Part shown: piece by piece, positions 1 through 325 of the stretch
Layout of the letters: each line of letters starts with the position of its first letter
Position numbering within the stretch: the stretch's first letter is position 1
Assembly: GCF_003334385.1 (NCBI RefSeq)
Contig: NZ_QOWN01000204.1
Source of the DNA: Escherichia coli
GTDB taxonomy: Bacteria > Pseudomonadota > Gammaproteobacteria > Enterobacterales > Enterobacteriaceae
Length of the DNA: 325 nucleotides
Direction: 5' to 3' (one strand)
Translations under genes and position numbers: made by a program
The notes under the pieces: generated by a model
Database searches by the model: none
What the model was told of the DNA's origin: nothing
What the model saw: only the letters and a program-made list of their open reading frames with translations

Positions 1-87
1 TTTTGCGTTGTCAGCACAGCCTCCTCCCGGGTCCAGAACGCACTCAGCCGGGTATGGTTCAGCCCATTTTTCCCGGCGTCTCATGCC

Positions 88-120
88 GCAAATGTTAACT
101 GCTGCCTGGTTAACATTTGC
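88..120. promoter_or_regulatory. Site I: perfect 12-bp inverted repeat GCAAATGTTAAC-(9 bp TGCTGCCTG)-GTTAACATTTGC; candidate binding site for a dimeric DNA-binding protein
   Basis: Direct reading: 88-99 gcaaatgttaac is the exact reverse complement of 109-120 gttaacatttgc. The symmetry stops at the next base pair outward (c87 vs t121). Each arm contains one copy of the GTTAACAT motif. Function is inferred from architecture only. Confidence 0.55.
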
Positions 121-126
121 TGAAAA

Positions 127-142
127 AGCCAGTTAACATTTT
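127..142 (+). promoter_or_regulatory. Site II: solo copy of the motif (AGCCAGTTAACATTTT), no inverted partner within 20 bp
   Basis: 127-139 agccagttaacat is identical to 195-207 (13 bp). 132-141 gttaacattt is identical to 109-118 in the right arm of site I. It lies 23 bp (GTTAAC centre to centre) downstream of that arm. Confidence 0.45.
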
Positions 143-187
143 TTCCGCACAACAAACTGAATAATAAAGATAAAAACCGCAAAAATG
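139..187. promoter_or_regulatory. AT-rich spacer (about 29% GC) with A/T tracts between sites II and III; possible promoter, intrinsic bend or unwinding element (unresolved)
   Basis: 14 G/C in 49 bp by direct count. T6 at 139-144, AAA at 154-156 and 166-168, A5 at 172-176 and 181-185. Weak -10-like hexamers: AATAAT at 160-165 on plus, TATTAT on minus (166-161). No -35 partner at 16-18 bp spacing on either strand. Confidence 0.3.
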
Positions 188-218
188 CCCGGGCAGCCAG
201 TTAACATGTTAACTGCCC
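186..218. promoter_or_regulatory. Site III: composite dyad - 10-bp palindrome TGCCCGGGCA (186-195), GC clamp GGGCAG (191-196) / CTGCCC (213-218), and 18-bp perfect palindrome CAGTTAACATGTTAACTG (198-215) made of two overlapping head-to-head motif copies
   Basis: Direct reading: 198-215 equals its own reverse complement. 191-196 is the reverse complement of 213-218. 186-195 equals its own reverse complement. The two GTTAAC hexamers (200-205, 208-213) are 8 bp apart centre to centre. Confidence 0.6.
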
Positions 219-290
219 TGAAACGGGAATTTTTTCTCTGCGTGAGAGGGGGCGCGGTGTCCAAAGCGATCGTTTTTTACGCCGGATGAT

Positions 291-298
291 CCCCCCCC
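291..298. repeat. Homopolymeric C8 tract (simple sequence repeat)
   Basis: Eight consecutive C at 291-298, directly followed by GGG (CCCGGG at 296-301). A G5 run at 248-252 lies 39 bp upstream. The tract is real in the sequence; any function (slippage, structure) is inferred. Confidence 0.7.
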
Positions 299-325
299 GG
301 GTCGGGTTACAGTCCGATGATGTCG

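Follow-up and report, generated by a model that had tools for sequence, protein, structure and literature searches.

The 325-bp stretch of Escherichia coli DNA analysed here (contig NZ_QOWN01000204.1; hereafter the window, meaning the whole stretch) is a 100% match to a lambdoid prophage in the chromosome of E. coli 2015C-3121. In every annotated copy of this locus the gene order on the minus strand is the same: an HNH endonuclease gene, a 289-bp gap, the small terminase gene terS, the large terminase gene terL, a protease-capsid fusion gene and the portal gene. Window positions 18-306 (289 of 325 bases, 89%) are intergenic in all annotated copies, and the locus sits at the boundary between the lysis module and the head module. 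It lies between the HNH gene and terS, and virion ends published for a close relative fall within it. We therefore identify the window as the cos (cohesive-end, DNA-packaging) site of a lambdoid prophage, which is an ordinary identity.

The close relative is Lys8385Vzw, a phage carrying Shiga toxin 1 (Stx1) whose TerS is 95% identical to that of the window prophage. PhageTerm analysis of its virion DNA classified the packaging as cos type, the cohesive ends being 3' and the 10-mer CGCCCCCCCT lying at the genome end (PMC7946995). The Lys8385Vzw record ends in GGACACCGCCCCCCCT and begins with CTCACGCAGAGAAAAAATTCCCG, and these ends align base for base with the minus strand of the window apart from scattered mismatches. 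The alignment places cosN of the window, CGCGCCCCCT, at 247-256 and the start of the packaged left end at 246, from where, by this homology, the packaged DNA runs in the direction of terS. Positions with a sign are counted from this cut, with plus toward terS. The cut site and the conserved core around it comprise the following elements:

291-298, minus strand: G8 run (C8 on the plus strand), ending 44 nt before the cut; a G-run is present in 22 of 22 related loci
257-290, minus strand: cos core spacer, 34 nt, ATCATCCGGCGTAAAAAACGATCGCTTTGGACAC, recognized by core conservation
247-256, minus strand: cosN, 10-nt 3' cohesive end CGCGCCCCCT, placed by homology to the Lys8385Vzw ends
217-246, minus strand: downstream core CTCACGCAGAG with an A6 tract (230-235, +12 to +17), recognized in the 22-locus comparison

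Eighty related loci were retrieved from bacterial genomes by TerS alignment, with further E. coli variants retrieved singly, and 22 loci ranging from E. coli to Proteus, Serratia, Pantoea, Erwinia and Pseudomonas were compared around the cut. Over the 34 nt from -14 to +20 (ACACCGCGCCCCCT followed by CTCACGCAGAGAAAAAATTC) these loci are identical at 21-33 positions, while TerS identity drops to approximately 35-45%. Among the E. coli variants the cos core (217-298) is 77-96% identical, compared with just 49-73% for the region between the core and terS, which we refer to as cosB after its lambda counterpart. All 22 loci have a run of six to nine G residues whose end lies 44-46 nt upstream of the cut, and a G9 run ends 42 nt before the experimentally defined end of HK97. 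A G-run upstream of the cut is thus common to the 22 loci and HK97 despite their unrelated TerS families. Its position suggests that it may be a cosQ-like or nuclease-positioning element, either read by TerL or the HNH protein or acting in termination.

The region downstream of the core contains five exact copies of the motif ATGTTAAC, at 92-99 (plus strand), 109-116 (minus), 132-139 (minus), 200-207 (minus) and 206-213 (plus), where 0.01 copies would be expected. None of 200 shuffled sequences reached five copies, and the five in the window are the only ones within 12.3 kb of the prophage. The original prediction, made from the letters of the window, had noted clustered motifs, palindromes, A/T tracts and GC-rich flanks. 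These descriptions hold: besides the motif cluster, a perfect palindrome of 18 bp occupies 198-215 and an inverted repeat of 12 nt spans 88-99/109-120, and the GC content is 0.33-0.40 in the A/T-rich centre (101-180) and 0.55-0.68 in the flanks. We read the motif copies as probable binding sites for the small terminase, forming a lambda-cosB-like array on an HK97-type cos; this array probably sets packaging specificity. The elements of this putative cosB are:

198-215, both strands: repeats 1 and 2, perfect 18-bp palindrome CAGTTAACATGTTAACTG made of two head-to-head copies of ATGTTAAC, +32 to +49
140-197, minus strand: A/T-rich segment; T-runs phased at +62, +71 and +79; IHF-like core ATTCAGTTTGTTG at 150-162; putative bend
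130-141, minus strand: repeat 3, AAATGTTAACTG, +108 to +117
107-118, minus strand: repeat 4, AAATGTTAACCA, +131 to +140
90-101, plus strand: repeat 5, inverted, AAATGTTAACTG on the plus strand, +146 to +157

Repeats 4 and 5 together form the 12-nt inverted repeat GCAAATGTTAAC/GTTAACATTTGC. The A/T-rich segment separates these distal copies from the palindrome and retains its own landmarks. T-runs at +61/62, +69/71 and +77/79 occupy the same positions in the window and in the variants L088 and L090, as does ATTCA-N5-TT[GA] at +84/85, at a cosB identity of 63-73%. The IHF consensus has one match in the window, with one mismatch, at 150-162, and 62 of 200 shuffled sequences contained an equally good one; we retained the IHF-like core as a feature because its position is conserved among the variants.

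The TerS protein belongs to a single Pfam family, Terminase_2 (PF03592; residues 2-57, E=2e-8). In its AlphaFold model residues 1-55 have a pLDDT (predicted local distance difference test) score above 90, and a helix spanning residues 30-41 follows an AGYS turn. The best match to the model in the PDB is the DNA-binding domain of SF6 TerS (4zc3; template modelling score 0.84, root-mean-square deviation 1.6 Å), followed by the TerS proteins of PaP3 and NV1. The N-terminal domain is therefore predicted to be a helix-turn-helix of the SF6/SPP1 type with residues 30-41 as the recognition helix. The TerS residues that vary among the variants (30, 32, 35 and 38) all lie within this predicted helix, with 32, 35 and 38 spaced three residues apart, and the sequence of TerS residues 29-40 pairs with the repeat as follows:

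SAKTAR[VI]KGSQL (window, L092, L089): repeat ATGTTAAC
S.KSARCKGSQL (L088, L093): repeat ATGTTTAY
..KTARVKGWQL (L094, L091): repeat AGTTACAC

In L088 and L093 every copy reads ATGTTTAY, at +34, +42, +108, +132 and +147. L090, whose TerS helix is SGKTARVKGSRL, contains six copies of ATGTTAACC, and AAAAGTTACAC-type copies number seven in L094 and two in L091. Where the TerS recognition helix differs among the E. coli variants, the repeat copies switch in concert and keep their positions.

The relatives also suggest where the array came from. In compact relatives terS starts 38-39 bp past the cut, and its first codons, ATG TTA ACA, are the +42 motif, preceded by an inverted half-site at +34. The aligned ATGTTAAC encodes the Met-Leu-Thr of terS in Kosakonia, Kluyvera, Citrobacter, Serratia, Pantoea, Erwinia and Salmonella phage FSL SP-016. 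GTTAAC at +35/+36 is retained in the Proteus and Pseudomonas relatives, in which it is noncoding and does not form the start codon. By this alignment, the window copy at 200-207 (minus strand, +42) appears to be the fossil of a compact-type terS start. Approximately 190 bp separate it from the present GTG CTG ACA (17-9) and contain the A/T-rich stretch and a further three copies of the motif (at +110, +133 and +148 by the numbering of the variant comparison); a fossil 24-codon open reading frame (ORF) persists, without a Shine-Dalgarno sequence. The window lineage thus seems to have gained about 190 bp inside the first terS codons. Because the noncoding GTTAAC is kept, the copies change in concert, and the changes track the TerS helix, we interpret the copies as functional protein-binding sites and not as debris.

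Together these comparisons make it highly likely that the window is a cos region in which a constant core is joined to a cosB-like region of about 230 bp that carries the TerS repeats and ends at the terS start. In the mechanism we propose, TerL aided by the HNH protein would read the constant core and introduce staggered nicks, generating 10-nt 3' cohesive ends. The helix-turn-helix domains of oligomeric TerS would bind the five ATGTTAAC sites, with the two head-to-head sites at +32 to +49 and the three at +108 to +157 contacted by one TerS assembly. Bending of the DNA by the phased T-tracts and the IHF-like site between the two groups would allow this joint contact. The assembly would then place TerL and the HNH protein on cosN, recruiting the nuclease-motor to this DNA and not to others, and packaging would proceed toward terS until it stops and cuts at the next cos. 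The location of the site, its gene context, the homology to mapped virion ends and the patterns of conservation and co-variation are observed, whereas the pairing of proteins with elements, the bend and the role of the G-run are proposals. A broader proposal, which we put forward tentatively and would not give an even chance, is that cos is modular throughout this phage group. A constant core would serve a shared TerL and HNH protein, and every copy of the fast-evolving TerS repeat would co-evolve with three or four recognition-helix residues. The array would have arisen by insertion into an ancestral terS start codon that was itself a TerS site, and the resulting modules would define packaging-specificity groups.

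Several points weigh against the main interpretation. Binding, cleavage and packaging are predicted for the window sequence by comparison, and the cut was transferred from a single PhageTerm result, obtained with a relative whose 10-mer differs by one mismatch. The HK97 TerS, the sole structurally defined case of this cos type, is from a different family and uses a single 15-bp site in a different mode. The association between repeats and TerS comprises four specificity classes with few independent examples and no phylogenetic correction, and in compact relatives with the helix SEKSARSKGSQL each half-type is represented by one site, so that no simple code links residues to bases. In the compact relatives ATGTTAAC is also the Met-Leu-Thr of terS, so coding could explain part of the conservation there. 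The IHF match taken alone is not significant and, given a frameshifted portal gene, the site may not be in active use in 2015C-3121.

Among other explanations, the window could be a cos site in which only the core and the first site matter, the extra repeats being inert debris within some 190 bp derived from duplications of the terS 5' end. Compact relatives, Salmonella phage FSL SP-016 included, do suffice with 38-39 bp between cut and terS and only the +34/+42 pair; furthermore, the motif corresponds to the first terS codons and the 16-nt AGCCAGTTAACAT(G/T)TT is present twice, as a duplication would leave it. Debris would be expected to decay independently, however, whereas L088 and L093 share the same substitution in all five copies with positions kept, the T-runs and the ATTCA core hold their positions while the surroundings drift to 63% identity, and the satellite-like L094 independently built a seven-copy array of its own motif. 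We therefore consider inert debris unlikely. Binding of the repeats by another packaging factor (the HNH protein, TerL or a host protein), with TerS reading the core in the manner of HK97 gp1 near +15 to +29, appears quite unlikely. The A6 at +12 to +17 does resemble the A-tract required for HK97 TerS binding, and the core is the most conserved part of the site, but the core remains constant while TerS falls to 35-45% identity and its recognition helix changes, and it is the repeats that change with the helix. Satellite-like islands that have TerS but neither TerL nor an HNH gene likewise combine their own repeats with the common core.

It is very unlikely that the repeats serve as operators through which terS or late-gene expression is regulated, either by TerS acting on its own gene or by another phage or host repressor. 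In the compact relatives a site does overlap the terS start codon beside the Shine-Dalgarno sequence, a classic autoregulatory layout, and a single sigma-70-like match occurs in the window at 110-139. This match, however, is on the plus strand, antisense to all phage genes, and is composed of the repeats themselves; scans of the window found no minus-strand promoter and no terminator. Lambdoid late genes are read through from an upstream Q-dependent promoter, which counts against an operator role. In addition, the window repeats lie 75-200 bp upstream of the terS start and not over it, and the motif occurs nowhere else in the 12.3-kb locus. The original prediction favoured a cis-acting locus of the kind found on plasmids or phages. 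It was right that the sequence is non-coding, cis-acting and part of a mobile element, but the classes it named (origin, centromere, attachment or resolution site, oriT, regulatory hub) were wrong. Clustered repeats, palindromes and an A/T-rich centre between GC-rich flanks are typical of such loci too. Inspection of the replicon and the context, as that prediction had advised, instead placed the window in a prophage, in the gap between the HNH gene and terS and outside coding genes over most of its length. Chromosomal prophages account for 2993 of the 2999 places at which it occurs in E. coli, always between the HNH gene and terS, and the neighbouring genes encode lysis, HNH and terminase functions. 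None of the genes annotated next to the window in the 100% identical locus is a replication, partition, relaxase or recombinase gene. Considering also that the virion ends of a close relative map to the window, an origin of a plasmid or of an integrative and conjugative element (ICE), or a partition, transfer, attachment or resolution site is almost certainly the wrong assignment.

By gene set, TerL and end type, the window site belongs to the HK97-like cos systems, which are HNH-assisted and leave 3' overhangs. In HK97 the order HNH gene, cos, terS has been established by experiment; the overhang is a 10-nt 3' end, cleavage is stimulated by the HNH protein gp74, and the TerS binding site lies immediately downstream of the cut (PMC11331095, PMC9410871). 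The window phage shares with HK97 the order HNH-cos-terS-terL across the genome ends, a homologous TerL and 10-nt 3' cohesive ends (PMC9410871, PMC7946995), together with a G8-9 run ending 42-44 nt upstream of the cut and specificity determinants just downstream of it, on the terS side. The TerL homology was found with phmmer against the PDB, where residues 84-534 match HK97 TerL/gp2 (6z6d_A, E=1.1e-9). The two systems differ in their cosN sequences and in TerS, which in the window phage is of the Terminase_2/SF6-type helix-turn-helix family and unrelated in sequence to gp1; a BLASTP comparison of the two found nothing. The window HNH protein matches Pfam HNH (PF01844, E=1e-6) and resembles gp74 in the HNH motif only (BLASTP, E=0.08). 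In HK97, TerS has a single 15-bp site (+15 to +29) and terS starts at +50, whereas the window has five repeats at +32 to +157 and terS at +230. Since there is no meaningful similarity of TerS or the HNH protein to gp1 or gp74, we did not transfer the HK97 TerS binding mode to the window.

The layout downstream of the cut is closer to that of lambda. Lambda ends are 12-nt 5' overhangs cut by gpA with no need for an HNH protein, and its small terminase is the winged-helix gpNu1. The window type differs in having 3' 10-mer ends (in the close relative), an HNH partner and a TerS that is not gpNu1-like, and there is no sequence similarity between the two. The order in lambda is cosQ-cosN-cosB, with R3, I1, R2 and R1 in cosB, then Nu1; the window likewise has a cut followed by approximately 200 bp with several mixed-orientation repeats, here putative TerS-binding sites, an A/T-rich divider that may be bent or bound by IHF, and the terS start. 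In lambda, too, cosB and TerS vary together between specificity types and cosN is kept. In lambda cosB an intrinsic bend and the IHF site I1 separate the R sites (PMC6739421; Xin and Feiss 1993, as cited in PMC9611059). The resemblance is probably one of analogy, through convergence.

The fold of the TerS DNA-binding domain points to a further group, that of SPP1 and SF6 G1P (4zc3; Terminase_2). The Bacillus phages SPP1 and SF6 package by the headful (pac) mechanism and have no HNH partner, whereas the close relative of the window phage has fixed cohesive ends. SPP1 TerS contacts the DNA at multiple points flanking the cut and bends it (PMC9611059).

The cos of Lys8385Vzw and the same region of BP-4795, 2851, 1717, YYZ-2008 and the Stx1a and Stx2c prophages are the same element as the window, these phage records matching it at 95-97% identity. 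For the Lys8385Vzw cos only the 10-mer is reported (PMC7946995), and the paper on the O157 Sakai prophages describes the lambda-type cos of Sp4 and Sp14 only. A non-exhaustive search of the searchable literature found no description of the core, G-run, repeats or bend; text matches to the 10-mer or to cosB with HNH were unrelated. The identity of the window is therefore routine, its 10-nt end having already been published for a near-identical Stx1 phage, and the added value lies in the anatomy. The variants form a natural series of matched TerS and repeat types (ATGTTAAC, ATGTTTAY, ATGTTAACC and AGTTACAC) combined with a cut site that stays constant, and so are a convenient means of studying how small terminases recognize DNA, a matter still in dispute. 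The series may also predict cross-packaging of defective or Stx-carrying prophages and of satellites in pathogenic E. coli. If the modular proposal is true, the modules would decide which co-resident prophages (up to seven per genome of Shiga toxin-producing E. coli, STEC) and which satellites lacking TerL and HNH use each other's packaging machines, and thereby which Stx prophages and islands mobilise together.

Among 5426 complete E. coli genomes, 1277 carry matches to the window, with a maximum of seven per genome and 2999 places in all; six of these places are not chromosomal. Seven records labelled as plasmids match it; they are large, contain HNH or terminase genes as well, and do not represent plasmid maintenance regions. 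Copies with approximately 96-99% identity were found in these genomes and in 94 phage records, which are mostly Stx1a-, Stx2a- and Stx2c-converting phages and include BP-4795, 2851, 1717 and YYZ-2008. The 84-nt cos core is found at 3017 places in 1286 of the 5426 genomes, with up to seven copies in single STEC genomes, which means that several co-resident prophages have one cut site in common. The portal gene of the 2015C-3121 prophage is annotated as frameshifted; this prophage, which supplies the window sequence, may therefore be defective and rely on co-resident prophages for packaging.

E. coli also contains islands (L091 1128-1200; L094 973-1200; L096/L097 2446-10944) that have, in this order, an integrase, a primase/replicase (AAA_25 or D5_N), the cos core, their own TerS and a 307-aa capsid-like protein. 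Their TerS is of the Terminase_2 family and 46-47% identical to that of the window prophage. The islands have neither TerL nor an HNH gene and keep the cos core with their own AAAAGTTACAC repeats (two or seven copies). They look like satellites of the phage-inducible chromosomal island (PICI) type, and their combination of a common core with their own TerS and repeats supports a division of roles between core and repeats.

The outer parts of the window belong to the flanking genes and the terS leader:

307-325, minus strand: 3' end of the HNH endonuclease gene (..ADDIIGL, stop TAA at 309-307), from the RefSeq annotation of the identical locus and translation
18-89, minus strand: terS 5' leader, with the Shine-Dalgarno sequence GGGAGGAGG at 28-20; little conserved
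1-17, minus strand: terS start, GTG CTG ACA ACG CAA AA (V/M L T T Q K), from annotation and Pfam

The HNH gene contributes its last six codons and the stop (325-307). The original prediction had seen no confident coding signal anywhere, which is correct for the intergenic 89% but overlooks the real terS start at one edge. Contrary to its view that none of the edge frames combines a start codon with a Shine-Dalgarno sequence, GGGAGGAGG precedes the annotated terS start GTG (17-15) on the minus strand, and the lack of codon periodicity it reported is uninformative, as the 17 and 19 coding bases in the window are too few to show any. The terS product begins V(M)LTTQKRKF, which fits the near-invariant N-terminus of the family, MLT.QKRKF. 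Annotation of this start is inconsistent, in that Lys8385Vzw and an E. albertii record begin 45 nt upstream at an in-frame CTG (202 aa). We take the GTG at window position 17 as the start because the family-wide N-terminus supports it. The five ORFs of 31-43 aa in the window are mechanical. The 43-aa ORF on the minus strand (264-133) was rejected as a gene because the cut site falls within it and its frame is disrupted by a 1-nt indel in both L090 and L094. The leader is 27-54% identical in L088, L090 and L094 and gave no signal of RNA structure (fold z = -0.76); a scan against Rfam at permissive thresholds returned just a chance miRNA-like match (E=0.57), far under the gathering score.

Two further observations concern copies of the locus elsewhere. 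In the PPompW prophages (L095 2885-2900) an IS110-family element, ISEc20, is inserted within the G-run of the cos core, and the match to the window ends at 295. Beyond ISEc20 these prophages contain tRNA genes and a Q gene; the HNH and lysis genes are missing, so their cos is severed from its HNH gene. Contigs L008 and L009, from metagenome-assembled genomes labelled 'Proteobacteria bacterium' and 'Acidaminococcus fermentans', encode TerS proteins 93-96% identical to that of the window prophage, and L008 carries the full cos region. Both are probably E. coli prophage contigs mis-binned into these genomes.

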